44,728 nucleotides of DNA, taken from sequence record MZ997840.1. The stretch is one strand, 5' to 3'. The notes beneath the pieces were generated by a model, which was given only the letters and a program-made list of their open reading frames with translations, was not told the DNA's origin and did not search any database. Positions 2,347 through 13,943 of this stretch are shown one piece after another. Every line of letters begins with the position of its first letter. The first letter of the stretch is position 1. Position numbers and translations under genes: made by a program. This DNA is from Escherichia phage ULINTec6.

Positions 2347-3231
2347 ATGACTACTGAAAACGTCCTCCTGTCTGTCCGCGAAGCTGCAACCGCTGAGATT
2401 AAGCAACATTTGGATAATATCGGCACTTCTTACATCAAAGTTGGCGCTTGTCTGAATGAATTACGCGGTGATTTCGAAGGTCAAAAAGACTTTTTAGCTT
2501 ATGTAGAATCAGAGTTCGGCATCAAGAAGGCACAATGCTACAAGCTGATGAGTGTAGCCCGTGTCTTTGAAGGAGACGAACGCTTTAAAGGTGTGGCTAT
2601 GCGTGTAATGCTGGCGCTTGTTCCTTTCGCTGATGAAAATATAATCATGGAGAAGGCCGCAGAACTCGCCGCAGATGGCAAGCTGGACACTAACGCCGTA
2701 AACGCTCTGATTGATCCTAAGAAAGAGACAAAGGCTGAGACGGTACAATCTAAGGCTGAGACAGTAAAACCGCAGGAGAACGCGACTGAGGCCGCAGAAT
2801 CACAGGAAATGCAAGCGCCGCAGGTAGTGCCACCCGCGAGCGAGCAGGAGGCCGACGAATCAGCACCGTGGGAAGAGGAAAGCAAGCCTGAAGCACCGAA
2901 GTCCGCGCCGCTGGATAACACGGCTAATACTGAGAATGCCGCTATTGCCGGTCTGCTGGCACAAATTAAGGCACTGACTGAGCAATTACAGGCAGCTAAT
3001 GACCGCATCGCCTCCTTAAGTAGCGCACGCGAAAGCAAGAAGGCAGCCGCGCCTATGCTGCCGCAATTCAAATCTTCCTGCTTCTATGCTCGCTTAGGTT
3101 TAAGCGCCGAGGAGGCAACGAAGAAAACAGCAGTTAACAAGGCACGCCGCGAACTGGTTAAGCTAGGCTATGGTGAAGGCCATGAAGCATGGGCCTTAAT
3201 ATCTGAGGCAGTAGAAGAATTAACTAAGTAA
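2347..3231 (+). CDS. Early hypothetical protein with globular N-terminal domain and low-complexity A/E/K/P/Q-rich C-terminal half
   Basis: ORF track (start adjusted to ATG 2347 after AAGGTG RBS); occupies the position of T7 gene 0.7 upstream of RNAP but shows no kinase motifs. Confidence 0.55.
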   Translation: MTTENVLLSVREAATAEIKQHLDNIGTSYIKVGACLNELRGDFEGQKDFLAYVESEFGIKKAQCYKLMSVARVFEGDERFKGVAMRVMLALVPFADENIIMEKAAELAADGKLDTNAVNALIDPKKETKAETVQSKAETVKPQENATEAAESQEMQAPQVVPPASEQEADESAPWEEESKPEAPKSAPLDNTANTENAAIAGLLAQIKALTEQLQAANDRIASLSSARESKKAAAPMLPQFKSSCFYARLGLSAEEATKKTAVNKARRELVKLGYGEGHEAWALISEAVEELTK

Positions 3232-6207: not shown

Positions 6208-6230
6208 ATTTACCGGACAGTATAGATAAG
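6208..6230 (+). promoter_or_regulatory. Phage promoter variant (ATTTACCGGACAGTATAGATAAG)
   Basis: One substitution in the core (GACAGTATAG); precedes the gene 1.1-like ORF. Confidence 0.5.
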
Positions 6231-6403: not shown

Positions 6404-7557
6404 ATGGCTATTATTAATAACATCCCATGTCCTCAATGTCAGAAGAATGGACACGATAAATCAGGCAACCACCTTATGATATTCGAGGATGGTGCTGGGT
6501 ACTGTAACCGTGGTCACTTCCATGATAATGGCAGACCTTACTACCATAAGCCTGAAGGGGGCATCGAGATAACCGAGTTGCCTATTACTGGCAATATCAA
6601 ATATACACCTTCCCAGTTTAAAGAGATGGAGAAGGAAGGGAAGATTAGCGACCCTAAGCTACGCGCCATCGCACTTGGTGGTATGCGTATGAAAGACCGT
6701 TGGGAGGTTATGAATGAGCAAGAAAGGGCAGACCAAGAAACAGAGTGGAAACTTGATGTTGAATGGTTCCTCACGCTTAAGCGTAAGAATCTTGTTTCCC
6801 GACACATTCGCGGCGACATTTGCGCATTGTATGATGTACGGGTCGGACACGATGAAGAAGGTAGAGTCTCACGGCATTACTATCCACGCTTCGAAAAAGG
6901 TGAGCTAGTAGGCGCTAAGTGTCGCACATTACCTAAAGACTTTAAGTTTGGTCATTTAGGTAAACTATTTGGTATGCAAGATCTTTTCGGTATGAATACT
7001 TTGTCTCACGTGTTAGACAAGGGAAGACGAAAGGATTGCTTGCTTATTGTCGGCGGCGAACTGGATGCACTAGCAGCACAGCAAATGCTCCTTGATTCTG
7101 CCAAGGGTACTAAGTGGGAAGGCCAGCCTTACCATGTATGGTCTGTCAATAAAGGTGAGTCTTGCCTTGAAGAGATAGTACAGAACCGTGAACACATCGC
7201 CCAATTTAAGAAGATTATATGGGGTTTTGATGGAGATGAGGTAGGGCAGAAGCAGAATCAGCAAGCGGCTCGCCTGTTTCCTGGCAAATCCTATATCCTT
7301 GAGTACCCTTCTGGTTGCAAAGATGCCAACAAGGCATTGATGGCTGGCAAGGCTAAAGAGTTTGTTGATGCATGGTTTAATGCCAAGTCATCTGATGAAG
7401 TCTTTGGTAGCCAGATTAAATCTATCGCATCTCAAAGGGATAAGCTCAAGGCTGCACGTCCAGAGCAAGGACTATCATGGCCTTGGCCTAAGCTGAACAA
7501 GGTAACGCTAGGTATTCGTAAGAACCAACTTATCATTGTAGGCGCAGGCTCTGGCGT
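6404..7557 (+). CDS. Primase-helicase (T7 gene 4 family), exon 1: zinc-ribbon, TOPRIM primase and start of the helicase P-loop (GAGSGV)
   Basis: IPCPQCQKNGHDKSGNHL...YCNRGHFH zinc ribbon and LLIVGGELDALA / FDGDEVGQ / CKDANKALM TOPRIM motifs match T7 gp4; the reading frame hits a stop 7 codons after GAGSGV. Confidence 0.85.
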
Positions 7558-8344
7558 TAACATTAGCGCCGCCATGTAGTAATACATGGGCAATAATCGT
7601 GTGAACTCAGGGGAAGACTAGAACAGTTAATCCTGAGCCAAGCTAGGCACACCTCAAATTCAAAGGAGGTGTTATGCAATTTAAAGAAGTACCAGATCAC
7701 AGTAATTATATTTGTTATGAGAATGGCACGGTTGTTAATCGTAAGACTGGAAAGGTCTTGAAAGAAGATACAACTAACCGAGGTTATAAGCGGATTACAG
7801 TAAGCAAGGGCAACAAGGTAACACGTTGGAGTGTGCACCGTTTAGTTGCTTTACTGTTTATCCCTAACCCTCATAATTATGAAACTGTTAATCACATATC
7901 GGGAGATAAGACGGATAACTCTGTTAGTAATCTTGAGTGGATGAGCCAAGAACAGAACCAAGCCCATGCTAAATATACAGGACTGTGTCCTAAAGGTGAG
8001 GCTGTTGGCACTAATAAGTTCAAAGAGGCAACTATTCAGCAAGTGTGCAAGCTAATAGAGAAAGGTTTATCTCGCGGTGAAATTATGAAAGCAACGAGCA
8101 TCTCTAAAGCAACCTTTGATGACATTCGTAGAAGGAAGACTTGGAAGCACGTATCTTGTTCATATAAATGGTGACAATCTGGTGTGCCTAGAAGGTGCAA
8201 CGACTATCCCGAAAGGGAGTACAGCCAAGCGGCTGGAAGCGCACGACACCCATCGTGGGTGATGATATAGTCTGGTCTATATGGGGACATATAGCAGTTC
8301 ATAAGAGAACGGGCGTGGCTTAGCGAACCACGTCGAACATAACG
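7558..8344 (+). mobile_element. Putative self-splicing group I intron (787 nt) interrupting the helicase Walker A motif, with an HNH homing endonuclease ORF in the P6 loop
   Basis: Exon end GGCGU 7553-7557 pairs with GCGCC 7566-7570 (P1, U-G at splice site); P-like CTCAGG 7606-7611 pairs with Q-like AATCCTGAG 7629-7637; R-like GTGCAACGACTATC 8195-8208 and S-like GATGATATAGTCTGG 8261-8275 form P7 (GACTA/TAGTC); intron ends with G 8344; splicing restores GAGSGVGKTEF. Confidence 0.75.
7674..8174 (+). CDS. Intron-encoded HNH homing endonuclease (166 aa)
   Basis: HNH motif VHRLVALLFIPNP...VNHISGDKTDNSVSNLEWMSQEQN; own RBS AAAGGAGGTG; C-terminal helix-turn-helix-like region. Confidence 0.85.
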   Translation: MQFKEVPDHSNYICYENGTVVNRKTGKVLKEDTTNRGYKRITVSKGNKVTRWSVHRLVALLFIPNPHNYETVNHISGDKTDNSVSNLEWMSQEQNQAHAKYTGLCPKGEAVGTNKFKEATIQQVCKLIEKGLSRGEIMKATSISKATFDDIRRRKTWKHVSCSYKW

Positions 8345-9170
8345 AGGTAAGACTGAGTTCCTCCGCGAAGTGGTTAAACACCTCATTGAAGAGCACGGTG
8401 AATCTGTAGGCATCATTTCTACAGAAGACCCGATGGTCAAGGTGTCCCGTGCTTTTATCGGTAAGTGGATTGATAAGCGCATTGAGTTACCGCCAACCAA
8501 TGACCCGAAAGAAGACGGATACCGTGAGGTGTTCGACTACACCGAGGAAGAAGCTAACGCTGCCATTGATTATGTGGCTGATACAGGAAAGCTATTTGTG
8601 GCCGACCTAGAAGGCGACTATTCTATGGAGAAGGTAGAGCAAACTTGCCTAGAGTTTGAGGCTATGGGCATTTCTAATATCATCATTGATAACTTAACGG
8701 GGATTAAATTAGATGAGCGTGCTTTTGGTGGGAAGGTTGGTGCACTTGATGAATGCGTCAAACGAATTGGTACTATCAAAGACCGACATGCGGTTACGAT
8801 TTTCCTTGTCTCTCACCTTACACGTCCTCCGGCAAACCGTACCCAACACGAAGAAGGTGGCGAAGTTATCCTTTCTGACTTCCGAGGCTCAGGCGCTATC
8901 GGATTCTGGGCATCTTACGCCTTGGGGATTGAGCGTAATACAAGAGCTGAAACGCTTGATGAAAGGACTACCACGTACATCTCGTGTGTCAAAGACCGCG
9001 ATCAAGGTGTGTGGACTGGCACTAAAGTGAAACTTAAAGGGGATATGACCACAGGTAGGTTATTGGAATGGGAAGATCGTGTTTCTAGATTTGACACAGG
9101 TATACCTAAGGAGCAAAGTGTACCTGATGAAAACACAGGAGAGTTGAATGAAGAAACTTCAGAGTTTTGA
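8345..9170 (+). CDS. Primase-helicase exon 2: remainder of the helicase domain, beginning (A)GKTEFLREV...
   Basis: In-frame upstream extension of the 8370 ORF reads GKTEFLREVVKHL, the second half of the Walker A motif; DnaB-family blocks LVSHLTRP and ILSDFRGSGAIGF match T7 gp4 helicase; no canonical start codon of its own. Confidence 0.8.
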
Positions 9171-9639
9171 GGAAGCAGGATATGTCGTCAAGGAAGACGG
9201 CACGATCTTAAACCCAAAGGGTTTAGTCAGAAAACCATCCTTCGCAGGTAAGAATGTTAAATACTATGTAGTATCTTGGAGGGATAAACATTCTAAGAAA
9301 ACAATCATAGATTTAGTTCACAGATTGGTTGCTAAGAAGTACATACCTAATCCACATGGTTTACCAGAAGTTCATCATAAAGACTTTAATCCTCTTAATT
9401 GTCATAAGGATAATTTGGAATGGACAGATGGGAAAACCAATTGTGAGTATAGTTATTCCAGGGTAGAGGCTGCGCTTGCACGAAGTGCTACCTTACTCTC
9501 ACCTGATGGGGTTAAGCATGAGGTATTTAATGTTCGTAAGTTCTGCCGTGAACATAGCCTCAATCCACCTAGCATATTTGAAGTGCTTAGTGGTAAGCGT
9601 AAATCACACAAAGGATGGACTATTTACCGGACACTATAG
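9148..9639 (+). CDS. Free-standing HNH homing endonuclease (163 aa)
   Basis: HNH motif VHRLVAKKYIPNP...VHHKDFNPLNCHKDNLEW; GGAGAG RBS; overlaps the helicase stop; the last codons are encoded by the phage promoter at 9622-9644. Confidence 0.8.
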   Translation: MKKLQSFEEAGYVVKEDGTILNPKGLVRKPSFAGKNVKYYVVSWRDKHSKKTIIDLVHRLVAKKYIPNPHGLPEVHHKDFNPLNCHKDNLEWTDGKTNCEYSYSRVEAALARSATLLSPDGVKHEVFNVRKFCREHSLNPPSIFEVLSGKRKSHKGWTIYRTL

Positions 9640-9644
9640 AAGAG
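9622..9644 (+). promoter_or_regulatory. Phage RNAP promoter (ATTTACCGGACACTATAGAAGAG)
   Basis: Full consensus match. Confidence 0.8.
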
Positions 9645-9673
9645 ACAAACTTTGAAGATGAACAGGAGTTTTA

Positions 9674-9817
9674 ATGGAAATTATTAAACCAGTATTGAAT
9701 ATCGGTATTGAGATCCTATTCATGCTTGTGATCGCAGATTATGCTGCACGAGTGAAACTTATCGTTGCATCTGGTTTTATGATGTCAATGTTCTTTATTG
9801 TAACACGCCTTATCTAG
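9674..9817 (+). CDS. Small hydrophobic membrane protein (47 aa)
   Basis: AGGAG RBS 6 nt upstream of ATG; predicted protein almost entirely hydrophobic; below ORF-track cutoff. Confidence 0.3.
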   Translation: MEIIKPVLNIGIEILFMLVIADYAARVKLIVASGFMMSMFFIVTRLI

Positions 9818-9834
9818 TGTATTTATCAGGGCTT

Positions 9835-9850
9835 GTCTCACATGTGAGAC
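9835..9850. repeat. 16-bp palindrome GTCTCACATGTGAGAC (copy 3), extended stem gcttgtctcaca/tgtgagacaggc, followed by TCTTATT
   Basis: Read directly; hairpin plus U-rich tail is terminator-like. Confidence 0.8.
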
Positions 9851-9889
9851 AGGCTCTTATTAAGTACATTAAATAACTGGAGATTGATT

Positions 9890-10612
9890 ATGTATAAATT
9901 AGTATTGAATGCAGGTGATTATGTTCGTAACATCAATGAAGCCTCACGTCGTTATCGTTGCCGTGGTGTAGTAGCTCGTGTAAGTGAGAACATGTATCAT
10001 GTAGAATATGATGATGGTATTAAGGCTTCTTATCACAAGAAAACCGCACATAAATATCTTGAAAAGGTTGTAGAGGTAAACAATCAATGTAAGTGCATAC
10101 ATGATGAGGTTTGCGATAAGTGTGCACGTCAGGTAGTTAAAGCCTTTACCTTTGCTCAACGCTATGGTTCTATGTATGGTGCTGGTAACAAGACCCTTGC
10201 AGAAGCAGCTTGGAAGACATTGCAGTTTGAGCGTTCAAATGGACGACGCACCACACTTAAGAAAGAGCGCCGCAATGTAATCACTGGTAAGACTCAAAGT
10301 GAGATGATTAAGCAATATGGCACTGCATTAGGTGTTACACAGTTCAATACTCGTGCATTGGGTAAATCCACAGGGCAAGCTATGGTGAAAATTGGTGAAG
10401 CTATGCTGCACCCAAATGTGCCTGTGCGAATCTTGGATGTTGACCATGCAATCACAGAGCATGGCACACCACGGCGTGTAGCTAATAATCATTTCGCCGA
10501 CACTATAGAAGGCATTATTCATAAGCAAGGGTTGAAAGGTCTTCACATCTTAAATGGTGAAGAATTACTGTACCTACCTATCGTTACTGAAGAAACATAC
10601 GTGAATATCTAA
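9890..10612 (+). CDS. Hypothetical protein (241 aa)
   Basis: ORF track, start adjusted to ATG 9890 after CTGGAG RBS; no confident family assignment. Confidence 0.55.
   Translation: MYKLVLNAGDYVRNINEASRRYRCRGVVARVSENMYHVEYDDGIKASYHKKTAHKYLEKVVEVNNQCKCIHDEVCDKCARQVVKAFTFAQRYGSMYGAGNKTLAEAAWKTLQFERSNGRRTTLKKERRNVITGKTQSEMIKQYGTALGVTQFNTRALGKSTGQAMVKIGEAMLHPNVPVRILDVDHAITEHGTPRRVANNHFADTIEGIIHKQGLKGLHILNGEELLYLPIVTEETYVNI
10491..10512 (+). promoter_or_regulatory. Promoter-like sequence inside a CDS (ATTTCGCCGACACTATAGAAGG)
   Basis: Core GACACTATAGAAG intact, upstream half diverged; within ORF 9890..10612. Confidence 0.35.
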
Positions 10613-11205: not shown

Positions 11206-11410
11206 ATTAAGCAAGGTTTGCTCTTGCGGTAAAGGCTATCGCAGTCGTATTGATGGTAAGTGTGGACATTGTAGGTCTAAGAAAGAGGCTGCTTTGTTTG
11301 ACAAGTACCACAATGAATTAGCCTATAACCACCCACATCTAACACCTAATTCTTTATTAGGACTTGGTTATAGGGCTAAATACTTTGGAGCAATCTATGA
11401 AATCAATTGA
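11192..11410 (+). CDS. Small Cys-rich (zinc-ribbon-like) protein
   Basis: CSCGKGYRSRIDGKCGHC motif; in-frame ATG 11192 with GAGG RBS preferred over the track start at 11165. Confidence 0.45.
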   Translation: MKTIKLSKVCSCGKGYRSRIDGKCGHCRSKKEAALFDKYHNELAYNHPHLTPNSLLGLGYRAKYFGAIYEIN

Positions 11411-13943
11411 TTGGAAGAAGGAAGCAGAAGGCCGTATTCTAGTGATGGATGCGGAAGCTAAAGGCCTCCTTGATGCTATCCGATATGGACACCGCGAAGA
11501 TGTGCATATCATTTGCTGTATGGACTTGCTTACTACCGAGGAGTTCCTCTTCTTCGACCCATATGAGATGCGTGACCCTGAAGCAAGAGAGCGTCTCAAG
11601 GAGTGGGAAGGACACCAAGACGGTGATTTGGTTGACGGTGTTAACTTTCTGAAGTACTGTGAAGCTATTGTGTCACAGAACTTCCTAGGGTACGATGGGC
11701 TTCTCTTTGAGAAAGCATTCCCTGACATCTGGAAGGGCTTTAACTACACCGAGAGGCGCGGCAAGGGCAGACTACGTGCTGACCTGTGCCCTGTTCGAGT
11801 CATGGATACGCTGGTCATGAGTCGCCTATTAAACCCCGATAGACGCCTTCCTCCGCAAGCATATGCCAAAGGTATGGGTAACGTCGCCCCTCACTCAATT
11901 GAGGCGCACGGCATCCGTATAGGCCGCTATAAACCGGAGAACGAGGACTGGTCTAAACTAACTGACCACATGGTTCACCGTGTACGTGAGGACGTGGCGA
12001 TTGGTCGTGACTTGTTCCTCTGGCTCTTTAACGGGGAATGGATGGAGCACAAACGCCGTGGCGTGAATAAACGCACTGGCCTAGGCATTGAGACAGCCTT
12101 CCACATGGAGTCCATTGTGGCGCTGGAGATGAGCCGTCAGGCAGAGCGTGGATTCCGTCTGGATATTGACAAAGCACTAGCGCGATGCGAAGAACTGGAC
12201 GCTAAGATTGATGAGACAGTCGCAGCGTTCCGCCCTCACATGCCTATGCGTATCAAGTCTAAACCTTTTAAACCGGAAGAAAAGAATGAAGTATGCCAAC
12301 GCGCAAATGAGTATGGAGCTAGCAACAATATACCTACTGTCCTTGACCCCTCACACTTTCTTCATGCCGAGAGACGAGGAGATCGCAAGACAGTATGGAG
12401 TGTCACTACTAAGTCTGGTGATTGGTCGGCTAGTGTCAAGAAAGACTTTCCTCACCTTAGAGGAAACCGTAATGACACGCCAAGTATCAAGTGGATTGGC
12501 GCTTACTCGCCTGTTACTTTCGAAGAGATTCCCTTGGGTAACAGGGATACAGTTAAGCAAGTGCTCTATGATTATGGGTGGAAAGGTGTTGAATTTAACG
12601 ATACCGAGCAAGCGCATCTGGATGAGTATGGAGTGTTACCCAAACCTTGGAGTGGGAAGATAAATGAAAAGTCCCTTACTTTATGGCAAGAGAGAGCCGC
12701 ACGTGAAGGTAAAACAGTCCCTGATTGGTGCTTGGGTATCGCTGCATGGTACATACTCGTATCCCGTCGTGGTACGATCCTTAACCGTGGTGACGTTGAA
12801 GCCTTCGACCAGAAGGGGGTGTGGCCTTCGCAAGCTGGTGTACGAAAGTGTCGCGGCCTTGTACCTGTAGCATTTAACAAGGAGTTAGGAATCAATGCGC
12901 AGCAATACTATGAGAGGTATGGGTGTTGGCCTACGTCTGACAAGGATGACGGGGAGTGGCGTGTTCCAGCTATTGCTATTAGTATTGGTACTTCTACGTT
13001 CCGTATGCGTCATCGTAACGTGGTTAATATTCCTGCCCGTGGTTTGTATCCTTTACGTGATTTATTCATAGCAGGTAAAGGTAAGCTAATCCTTGGTTGT
13101 GATGGCGCTGGTCTTGAACTACGTGTACTATCTCACTTCATGAATGACCCTGAGTATCAAGATATTGTACTGCATGGTGATATACATACTCATAACCAGA
13201 TGAAGGCTGGTCTTCCCAAGCGTGACATGGCGAAGACATTTATATATGCCTTCCTATATGGGTCTGGTATAGCTAACCTTGCAGCAGTATGCGGTGTTAC
13301 TGAGGAAGAAATGAAGGAAGTTGTGGCAAGATTTGAGATTGAACTACCATCTCTTGCACGTCTTCGTGAGAATGTTATCGCACAAGGTAACAAGTTTGGC
13401 TATCTACAAGCACCTGATGGGCATTGGGGTCGCATCCGTATGTCTGGTGGTGAACTTAAAGAGCACACTATGCTTAACGTATTGCTCCAGATGACTGGCT
13501 CTCTGTGTATGAAATACGCATTGGTCAGAGCGTTTGCGGTGATGCGCAAGGAAGGTGTGGCTCTAGATAGTATGGGAAACCCTTGCGGTGTGGCTAACGT
13601 GCACGATGAAATCCAAATGGAAGTTCCTGAAGATGAGGTCTTGTATCTCAACTATGACTTGCCTTTCACCTTAGAAGGGTTCGAAACAGAGAAGGCTGCT
13701 GTGAAAGCAGTGTTCGATGCAGAGGAGAAACGTGTTCATGTTGATTCCGAAGGGCGCATGTGGTCTGCTGCAAATCTCATTAGCGTTGATGCTGATGCTG
13801 GTGTACTTCATTGCCAGCGTCGTTATCACCGTGCAGGACATATCATTGCCGATGCAATGACTTGGGCTGGTTATTATTTGAAGATGCGTTGTCCGATGGC
13901 AGGTGAGTATAAGATTGGTGCAAGCTGGAAGGAAACACACTGA
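11397..13943 (+). CDS. DNA polymerase (family A, T7 gene 5-like) with 3'-5' exonuclease domain
   Basis: Motif B-like RDMAKTFIYAFLYGSG, motif C-like VHDEIQMEV, N-terminal exonuclease motif LVMDAEAKGL; start set to ATG 11397 after GGAG RBS. Confidence 0.93.
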   Translation: MKSIDWKKEAEGRILVMDAEAKGLLDAIRYGHREDVHIICCMDLLTTEEFLFFDPYEMRDPEARERLKEWEGHQDGDLVDGVNFLKYCEAIVSQNFLGYDGLLFEKAFPDIWKGFNYTERRGKGRLRADLCPVRVMDTLVMSRLLNPDRRLPPQAYAKGMGNVAPHSIEAHGIRIGRYKPENEDWSKLTDHMVHRVREDVAIGRDLFLWLFNGEWMEHKRRGVNKRTGLGIETAFHMESIVALEMSRQAERGFRLDIDKALARCEELDAKIDETVAAFRPHMPMRIKSKPFKPEEKNEVCQRANEYGASNNIPTVLDPSHFLHAERRGDRKTVWSVTTKSGDWSASVKKDFPHLRGNRNDTPSIKWIGAYSPVTFEEIPLGNRDTVKQVLYDYGWKGVEFNDTEQAHLDEYGVLPKPWSGKINEKSLTLWQERAAREGKTVPDWCLGIAAWYILVSRRGTILNRGDVEAFDQKGVWPSQAGVRKCRGLVPVAFNKELGINAQQYYERYGCWPTSDKDDGEWRVPAIAISIGTSTFRMRHRNVVNIPARGLYPLRDLFIAGKGKLILGCDGAGLELRVLSHFMNDPEYQDIVLHGDIHTHNQMKAGLPKRDMAKTFIYAFLYGSGIANLAAVCGVTEEEMKEVVARFEIELPSLARLRENVIAQGNKFGYLQAPDGHWGRIRMSGGELKEHTMLNVLLQMTGSLCMKYALVRAFAVMRKEGVALDSMGNPCGVANVHDEIQMEVPEDEVLYLNYDLPFTLEGFETEKAAVKAVFDAEEKRVHVDSEGRMWSAANLISVDADAGVLHCQRRYHRAGHIIADAMTWAGYYLKMRCPMAGEYKIGASWKETH

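Follow-up and report, generated by a model that had tools for sequence, protein, structure and literature searches.

At the 3' end of the primase/helicase gene of Escherichia phage ULINTec6 (sequence record MZ997840.1) lies an open reading frame (ORF) predicted to encode an HNH homing endonuclease, which begins within the last codons of the helicase and ends within a phage promoter. We describe this locus in the context of the whole stretch of 44,728 nucleotides, which we call the window and from which all positions are taken. The window encodes an 875-aa single-subunit RNA polymerase, a primase/helicase and a DNA polymerase, and is 90-98% identical to the Vectrevirus phages K1E, K1-5 and ACG-C91 (Autographiviridae, Molineuxvirinae). 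The features of the locus are as follows.

8345..9170, + strand: exon 2 of the primase/helicase gene, which together with 6404..7557 encodes a 659-aa protein with a Pfam DnaB_C match
9009..9128, + strand: divergent helicase 3' tract linked to the HNH gene, a co-converted or donor-derived flank
9129..9170, + strand: surrogate helicase C-terminal tail ENTGELNEETSEF and TGA, replacing the LPDTIEETTFDDEQEF and stop of HNH-less relatives
9137..9141, + strand: Shine-Dalgarno sequence AGGAG of the HNH gene, inside the tail codons and 6 nt before the ATG
9148..9639, + strand: I-HmuI-like HNH homing-endonuclease gene with an ATG start, 163 aa, nuclease activity predicted
9622..9644, + strand: predicted K1E-type phage RNA-polymerase promoter, 23-mer ATTTACCGGACACTATAGAAGAG, core ATTTACCGGACACTATAG
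9624..9674, + strand: vestigial original helicase tail LPDTIEETNFEDEQEF and stop, hardly different from the tail that ACG-C91 and K1E translate
9674..9817, + strand: gp9.5 homologue, 47 aa (PHROG 15806, E 3.3e-28; annotated gp9.5 in K1E), the first gene after the promoter

An I-HmuI-like gene overlaps the end of the helicase gene

An initial annotation of this DNA had read the ORF as a second, free-standing HNH homing-endonuclease gene that overlaps the helicase stop and has the same HNH core as an enzyme encoded in a helicase intron. The overlap is real: the last 23 nt of the helicase ORF, which stops with TGA at 9168-9170, also belong to the HNH ORF. The motif VHRLVA..IPNPH..VHHKD..NLEW is also present, and alignment with the intron ORF (7674..8174) gives 30% overall identity, with the VHRLVA/IPNPH/NLEW core common to both.

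Searches with the 163-aa protein lead to PHROG 59, 'HNH endonuclease' (E 8e-25), and to a single sequence match in the PDB, I-HmuI (1U3E, E 3.6e-8), which spans residues 56-159 and takes in the HNH motif and the C-terminal helix-turn-helix. An I-HmuI_NUMOD-like profile scored 15.6 bits, under its threshold of 27. The AlphaFold2 (AF2) model of the protein has a predicted local distance difference test (pLDDT) score of 86.7, and the only match of this model in the PDB with E < 0.001 by Foldseek is 1u3e_M (E 1.3e-11, 160 aligned columns, 28% identity), so that model and search agree on a three-domain fold of the I-HmuI type. Five residues, H58, H77, N89, W92 and N98, are invariant in 18 homologues. 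In the 1U3E alignment, H76-H77, N89 and N98 line up with I-HmuI D74-H75, N87 and N96 (in our own indexing), so that the catalytic His and the conserved Asn that mark the HNH family are both present. On sequence and model, the ORF is thus predicted to encode an I-HmuI-like HNH endonuclease with its catalytic residues intact.

I-HmuI is an HNH nicking homing endonuclease of Bacillus phage SPO1. In both proteins, a beta-sheet at the N-terminus is followed by the HNH motif and then by a helix-turn-helix or NUMOD-like domain at the C-terminus. They differ in that I-HmuI is intron-encoded whereas the window protein is free-standing, and in that I-HmuI Asp74 aligns with His76 of the window protein. 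Among nine intact orthologues, the pairwise ratio of nonsynonymous to synonymous divergence (dN/dS) is 0.04-0.24, and a single near-identical pair gives 0.42; the gene is protein-coding and under purifying selection.

The other HNH gene of the window lies in a 787-bp insert, 7558..8344, which interrupts the P-loop codons of the same helicase gene between GAGSGV and GKTEF and contains the ORF 7674..8174. Removing the insert restores one 659-aa ORF with the P-loop GAGSGVGKTEF. Rfam reports a sub-threshold group I intron match in the insert (38 bits, gathering score 50; E 1.6e-7). The insert is missing from the five relatives first compared (K1E, ACG-C91, NIC06P3, PDP21P3 and BP12B) and is 99.9% identical to one in phage ULINTec7, which has no second HNH gene. 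The two genes have the family (PHROG 59 / HNH_3) and the host gene in common, but the intron enzyme would be made harmless by splicing and the second one by supplying a replacement tail. They had been described as flanking the helicase gene (gene 4). They do not: the first is in the group I intron and the second within the gene's 3' end, and because ULINTec7 has the one without the other, they are independent elements in the same host gene.

The promoter is helicase coding sequence in HNH-less relatives

The promoter at 9622..9644 is one of seven matches to the promoter pattern in the window (up to 3 mismatches), all on the + strand, where 0.00 were expected from 100 shuffles. Six of the seven have ATTTAC[CT]GGACACTATAG in common; at 6208 the sequence is GGACAGTATAG. 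Analogy with SP6 predicts the +1 G at 9639. A promoter was found at the helicase 3' end in 21 of 21 loci inspected.

The initial annotation regarded this as an intergenic promoter region, a view that the relatives contradict. In each of 11 HNH-less phages examined (K1E, K1-5, ACG-C91, vB_EcoP_C, CrRp3, SP6, Kenya-K30, IME184, SE29, Pm5460 and POP72, representing five named genera and one unassigned Klebsiella phage), the promoter lies inside the primase/helicase coding sequence, where it encodes L-x-x-T-I-E of the C-terminal tail (helicase 3' ends L001, L005, L006 and L095-L102; window equivalent 9622..9674). The ACG-C91 and K1E helicases end in ...VPD-LPDTIEETTFDDEQEF, with the promoter embedded as gAT TTA CCG GAC ACT ATA GAA GAG; the SP6 helicase ends in ...VPDE-LGDTIEENTQEFNG, with AATTAGGTGACACTATAG embedded. 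The corresponding tail is LETTIEE in Proteus phage Pm5460, whose depositors annotated the promoter within the helicase coding sequence in GenBank, and LGRTIEQ in Pectobacterium phage POP72. The promoter-encoded residues vary with promoter specificity: LPD for ATTTACCGGAC, LGD for ATTTAGGTGAC, LET for AATTAGAGACC and LGR for ACTTAGGGCGG. Each of these tails is acidic, with EF at its end (EFNG in SP6). Because the arrangement is present in 11 HNH-less phages of five named genera, sequence comparison argues that a promoter embedded in the helicase tail is ancestral across the Molineuxvirinae. In the T7 primase-helicase, an acidic tail and its terminal Phe are required for interaction with the DNA polymerase (PMC12230644).

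The insertion exchanged one helicase tail for another

Compared with ACG-C91, the window has a 495-nt insert, 9129..9623, between CCTGAT and TTACCGG, with boundaries ambiguous by the dinucleotide AT. The insert is placed exactly between the helicase codons for ...VPD and the promoter. It cuts off the last 16 helicase codons and supplies 13 replacement codons followed by TGA. The resulting tail, ENTGELNEETSEF, is acidic, Phe-terminated and promoter-free, and the first 620 residues of the spliced helicase product match the ACG-C91 helicase with 97% identity.

In 10 of 10 HNH-positive loci, the helicase finishes with an acidic replacement tail whose last codons are those for EF and stop. The tails are of three types, E[NS]TGELNEE[TA]SEF, EVV[DN]KG[GD]F[IN]ADEVEEF and EGEVTGADETQEF or VEEGGIFADETEEF. 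Because replacement and native tails are equal in length (14 or 17 residues after VP) and can be aligned at their ...EF ends, their sequences suggest that the replacement tails derive from a native tail in which the promoter was erased. The tail codons also hold the translation signals of the HNH gene: the orthologous loci all have GGAGG or AGGAG followed by an ATG, TTG or GTG start.

The original tail has not disappeared. Downstream of the HNH stop, LPDTIEETNFEDEQEF and its stop codon keep the frame of the helicase but are not translated with it any more; this stretch is now the transcript leader of the next gene. Its codons for QEF and stop furnish the AGGAG Shine-Dalgarno sequence and the TAATG junction of gp9.5. 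In some HNH-positive relatives this vestigial tail is decaying, with an internal stop in contig L094 and a deletion in contig L092.

At its other end, too, the HNH gene is dual-coded. Its frame reads TGG ACT and then, from the start of the promoter, ATT TAC CGG ACA CTA TAG, so that the 18-nt promoter core at 9622-9639 encodes I159-Y-R-T-L163 and the TAG stop, with W157 and T158 upstream of the core. The initial annotation had assigned the last seven codons (WTIYRTL) to the promoter; that the promoter is read as the C-terminus is right, the number being five (IYRTL), together with the stop. The ORF of K1E-type phages ends in ...GWT-I-YRTL, with the TAG at promoter positions -2 to +1. With the SP6-type promoter of BP12B, ATTTAGGTG, the protein ends in ...GWTI, and with the third promoter type, that of L093 (ATTTAAGGG-type, ATTTAAGGGCTACTATAG), it ends in ...GWHI. 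The ORF thus always terminates in the promoter, as ...I-YRTL, as ...I with TAG or as ...I with TAA. What the three promoter types have in common is the Ile codon ATT, formed by the first three promoter bases, and a stop from the promoter, and nothing else.

We considered YRTL as a functional C-terminus of the HNH protein and rejected it. It is missing in BP12B and L093, where promoter bases give an earlier stop; since SP6-type and ATTTAAGGG-type promoters end the ORF at ...I, YRTL is incidental. The earlier suggestion that the gene co-opted promoter sequence as coding sequence survives in part: the 3' end of the HNH gene is indeed read from the promoter, but the promoter was already coding before the gene came.

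The gene is sporadic and always at the same junction

Within a phage collection, 103 records matched window positions 8600-10200, and only 3 of them, NIC06P3 and two PDP21P3 records, cover the HNH ORF. The others align in two pieces that skip it, so that the gene is absent from about 97%. No record in the collection covers both flanks and the insert at high identity. The ORF is hence polymorphic at the gene 4 junction rather than conserved in all relatives, as expected if, as first proposed, a free-standing homing-endonuclease gene had been inserted there.

Orthologues with more than 60% identity were found, by DNA search and tblastn, in six records: NIC06P3, PDP21P3 (two records) and the Salmonella phages BP12B (two records) and GRNsp03. 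All six carry the gene at the helicase 3' end, at the same junction. These ORFs match the window in site and architecture with 77-93% protein identity, and their genomes lack the helicase intron of the window; BP12B_11, annotated as a hypothetical protein, is four codons shorter with its SP6-type promoter. A large protein database holds about 13 orthologue clusters, one of which (P0008) is already named 'HNH endonuclease'. In 6 of 6 contigs retrieved, metagenomic or from assemblies, the HNH ORF overlaps the end of a 659-662-aa primase/helicase gene by 23-26 nt. Apart from BP12B itself, IMG/VR contributed no further close orthologue. The gene is present at the same site in three lineages of different promoter specificity. 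One copy, at 3001..3519 of L094 (a contig of SRR27143269), is frameshifted after WTDGK and is decaying, which fits the cycle of gain, decay and loss of homing endonucleases.

Two further kinds of homologue were seen. In Erwinia phage Era103 (L007, 3001..3486), a 33% identical homologue starts at the TAATG of the helicase stop. It has a similar C-terminal sequence (...RKQWKGWTL...), its ORF does not end in a promoter and the helicase tail is intact; this form may be an older or independent version of the association between helicase and HNH genes. Several Vectreviruses (Sem1-4, ULINTec4/7, LL11, T147P9, L093 and L094) have a third HNH paralogue, 40-49% identical to the gene studied here, directly before their DNA polymerase gene. 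No ORF of this third kind is present upstream of the DNA polymerase gene of the window (11364..13943).

The gene sits in a mosaic patch

The HNH gene lies within a foreign patch of about 615 bp in a backbone that is 97-100% identical to HNH-less phages. Fine mapping places the left breakpoint at 9003-9009: the window is identical to ACG-C91 through 9002, including private single-nucleotide polymorphisms, and NIC06P3-like from 9009. Against K1E, the helicase core has a dN of 0 and a dS of 0.069, and the last 156 nt a dN of 0.27 and a dS of 1.2. The same left break appears in both genera, in PDP21P3 against K1E and in BP12B against SP6. In the HNH-linked tract PDP21P3 is nearer to the Salmonella phage BP12B (dN 0.076) than to K1E (dN 0.26). 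Among 50,697 phage records, the window-type helicase tract occurs only in the HNH-positive NIC06P3, and no HNH-less genome in these records keeps the HNH-linked tract as a scar of loss.

On the other side, sequence right of the promoter is 98-100% like ACG-C91 and K1E and 87% like NIC06P3, the return to ACG-C91-like sequence taking place within about 60 nt past the promoter. The gene is itself a mosaic. Identity to NIC06P3 is 96-100% over the first ~250 nt and 76-82% in the middle, and the last ~100 nt match PDP21P3 without a difference (100%). These last ~100 nt are 91-96% identical even to BP12B, though dS over the whole gene exceeds 1.6.

The hypervariable HNH-linked tract is directly preceded by a block of some 150 nt of helicase sequence (~8850..9002) with 93-100% nucleotide identity even between Vectrevirus and Zindervirus, against 82-88% in its neighbours. 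In the inspected part of this block, the HNH-positive contig L091 uses different codons at almost all synonymous sites. The conservation of the block could come from repeated homogenisation by gene conversion or from constraint at the nucleotide level.

Free-standing endonuclease genes of phages spread with co-conversion of flanking DNA and must leave neighbouring promoters undisturbed (PMC2988022), and endonuclease genes are located at recombination boundaries (PMC10448857). The co-conversion, the boundary position and the gain-decay cycle seen here match what these papers describe.

Origin of the cassette

It is highly probable, in our judgement, that a free-standing I-HmuI-like HNH homing-endonuclease gene entered a K1E/ACG-C91-like Vectrevirus by recombination, at the 3' end of its primase/helicase gene. 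The locus has what is expected of a homing gene, namely presence/absence polymorphism at one fixed site, a mosaic flank and a degenerate copy in L094. It departs from the usual intergenic location, as the insertion is within the helicase coding sequence of HNH-less relatives and retains a 23-nt overlap. We envisage the following course. During co-infection, the enzyme would nick or cut HNH-less genomes at or near the junction of helicase tail and promoter. Repair from an HNH-positive genome would then copy the cassette and, ahead of it, some 120 nt of the helicase gene; homology on the right would be provided by the promoter and any sequence beyond it. The replacement tail would restore a complete helicase C-terminus and keep the helicase working with the polymerase. 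Because the Shine-Dalgarno sequence and start codon are embedded in that tail, the HNH protein would be translated from the helicase transcript. Its ORF would run into the resident promoter and take its stop codon there, leaving the promoter intact and presumably still driving the downstream genes, with the displaced tail as untranslated leader.

Several observations weigh against this explanation or parts of it. The Pfam HNH_3 match is under the gathering score (E 3.4e-4, 20.6 bits against 24.8); the family assignment stands because the PHROG 59 and 1U3E matches compensate. Cleavage of the HNH-less allele, and with it the target site, is something that we infer from sequence. No residue or base outside the tail separates all HNH-positive from all HNH-less helicase alleles; the sole universal difference across the alleles inspected is the presence of the promoter in the tail. 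Equivalence of the replacement tail to the original is suggested by the analogy with T7 only. A single clean homing event into an ACG-C91-like backbone is ruled out, the HNH gene itself being a mosaic of two alleles. Finally, HNH divergence between the genera is deep (dS > 1.6); the element is therefore old, and loss instead of gain could account for some of its distribution.

One candidate for the target was examined and dropped. The sequence TTAATGGAACCACAA (RLMEPQ) separated K1E, ACG-C91 and SP6 from three HNH-positive allele types. It failed as a discriminator when more loci were added, because HNH-less phages vary at the M codon and the HNH-positive L093 keeps EPQARTR.

The depth of this divergence raises the question of whether the gene could be an ancient resident, inherited vertically and lost many times, with no recent invasion of the window. 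Between Salmonella and E. coli phages the HNH gene is saturated (dS 1.6 to >3), at least as diverged as the helicase is between the genera (dS ~0.8), and the distant Era103 homologue (33% identity) also follows the helicase. We nevertheless think this improbable. HNH-positive Vectreviruses carry a replacement tail and also the original one, which keeps the helicase frame and hardly differs from the version translated in HNH-less phages. Such a pair of tails is the mark that an insertion leaves; loss, for its part, would need precise restoration of the in-frame fusion. The window flanks are 97-100% identical to those of the HNH-less ACG-C91 and K1E (helicase core dS 0.05-0.07), whereas the cassette is nearest to NIC06P3, whose helicase core differs with a dS of 0.34. 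The promoter within the tail in 11 HNH-less phages of five named genera likewise points to that arrangement as ancestral.

Purifying selection, tight translational coupling to the helicase gene and a place in the replication module would also suit a domesticated nuclease that serves the phage rather than itself, by excluding competitors, degrading host DNA or processing replication intermediates with the helicase. This seems to us somewhat less probable still, given the sporadic occurrence of the gene among near-identical phages, the pseudogenised L094 copy and the patchy, recombinant boundaries of the cassette; marker exclusion of competitors is in any case a normal by-product of homing. The least credible view, to which we give hardly any weight, is that the window ORF is an inactive relic whose overlap with the promoter is meaningless. 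It could draw on the sub-threshold Pfam score and the degenerate copy in a relative, but the ORF is full-length, the invariant H58, H77, N89 and N98 are all present, the I-HmuI-like fold is predicted with confidence, dN/dS stays far below 1, and the Shine-Dalgarno sequence and start codon are conserved.

Taking recombination of a homing-endonuclease gene into the helicase gene as the preferred explanation, the closest known counterparts are the free-standing HNH and GIY-YIG genes of T4-like phages, such as mobE and segG, which are likewise sporadic and beside an essential replication gene (PMC2988022). They share with the window gene expression from the upstream gene's transcript, co-conversion of flanks and preservation of the downstream promoter (PMC2988022). 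The T4 elements are described as intergenic, whereas the window gene is inside its neighbour's coding sequence, swaps the C-terminal tail, overlaps by 23 nt and takes its stop from the promoter. We found no description of this arrangement in the literature, only generic remarks on an 'extra HNH'; the original SP6, K1-5 and K1E genome papers were outside the search. As a mobile element it is well documented but ordinary and of a known kind, if unusually tidy in its use of an essential gene.

We also put forward, as a tentative idea that may well prove wrong, that the cassette is a homing element adapted to an essential gene without the help of an intron or intein. In place of these it would use a surrogate, acidic and Phe-terminated polymerase-interaction tail with translation signals hidden within it, and the promoter as both stop codon and downstream recombination arm, and its recognition site would be the tail/promoter junction that its insertion disrupts. 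If so, recognition of a junction conserved throughout the Molineuxvirinae would explain how the element crosses between lineages of different promoter specificity.

Neighbouring features

Downstream of the promoter, the gp9.5 homologue has an 18-bp in-frame deletion at about 9729/9730, which makes this small membrane-like protein 47 aa instead of the 53 aa found elsewhere and is unique to the window among seven aligned genomes. It is followed by a GC-rich hairpin, cagggcttgtctcacatgtgagacaggctc, at 9822..9863, where the annotation of R4596 and other relatives gives a terminator. In the cassette itself Rfam detected no structured RNA; the only hit nearby, a sub-threshold mir-753 match (9822-9863), is spurious and falls on the terminator hairpin.

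Implications

For annotation of these genomes, the promoter should not be called intergenic, nor the vestigial tail a gene. Judged from its sequence, the HNH enzyme is a candidate site-specific nickase. For the engineering of K1E- and SP6-like therapeutic phages, a recombination hot spot is to be expected at the helicase 3' locus. More broadly, a late-region promoter that is dual-coded in the acidic tail of the helicase is a feature common to the phage subfamily, and the residues at two tail positions follow promoter specificity. The locus offers a clean natural example of how a free-standing homing-endonuclease gene can settle among the codons of an essential replication gene with seemingly little cost; the displaced C-terminal peptide is replaced and the embedded promoter is left intact.

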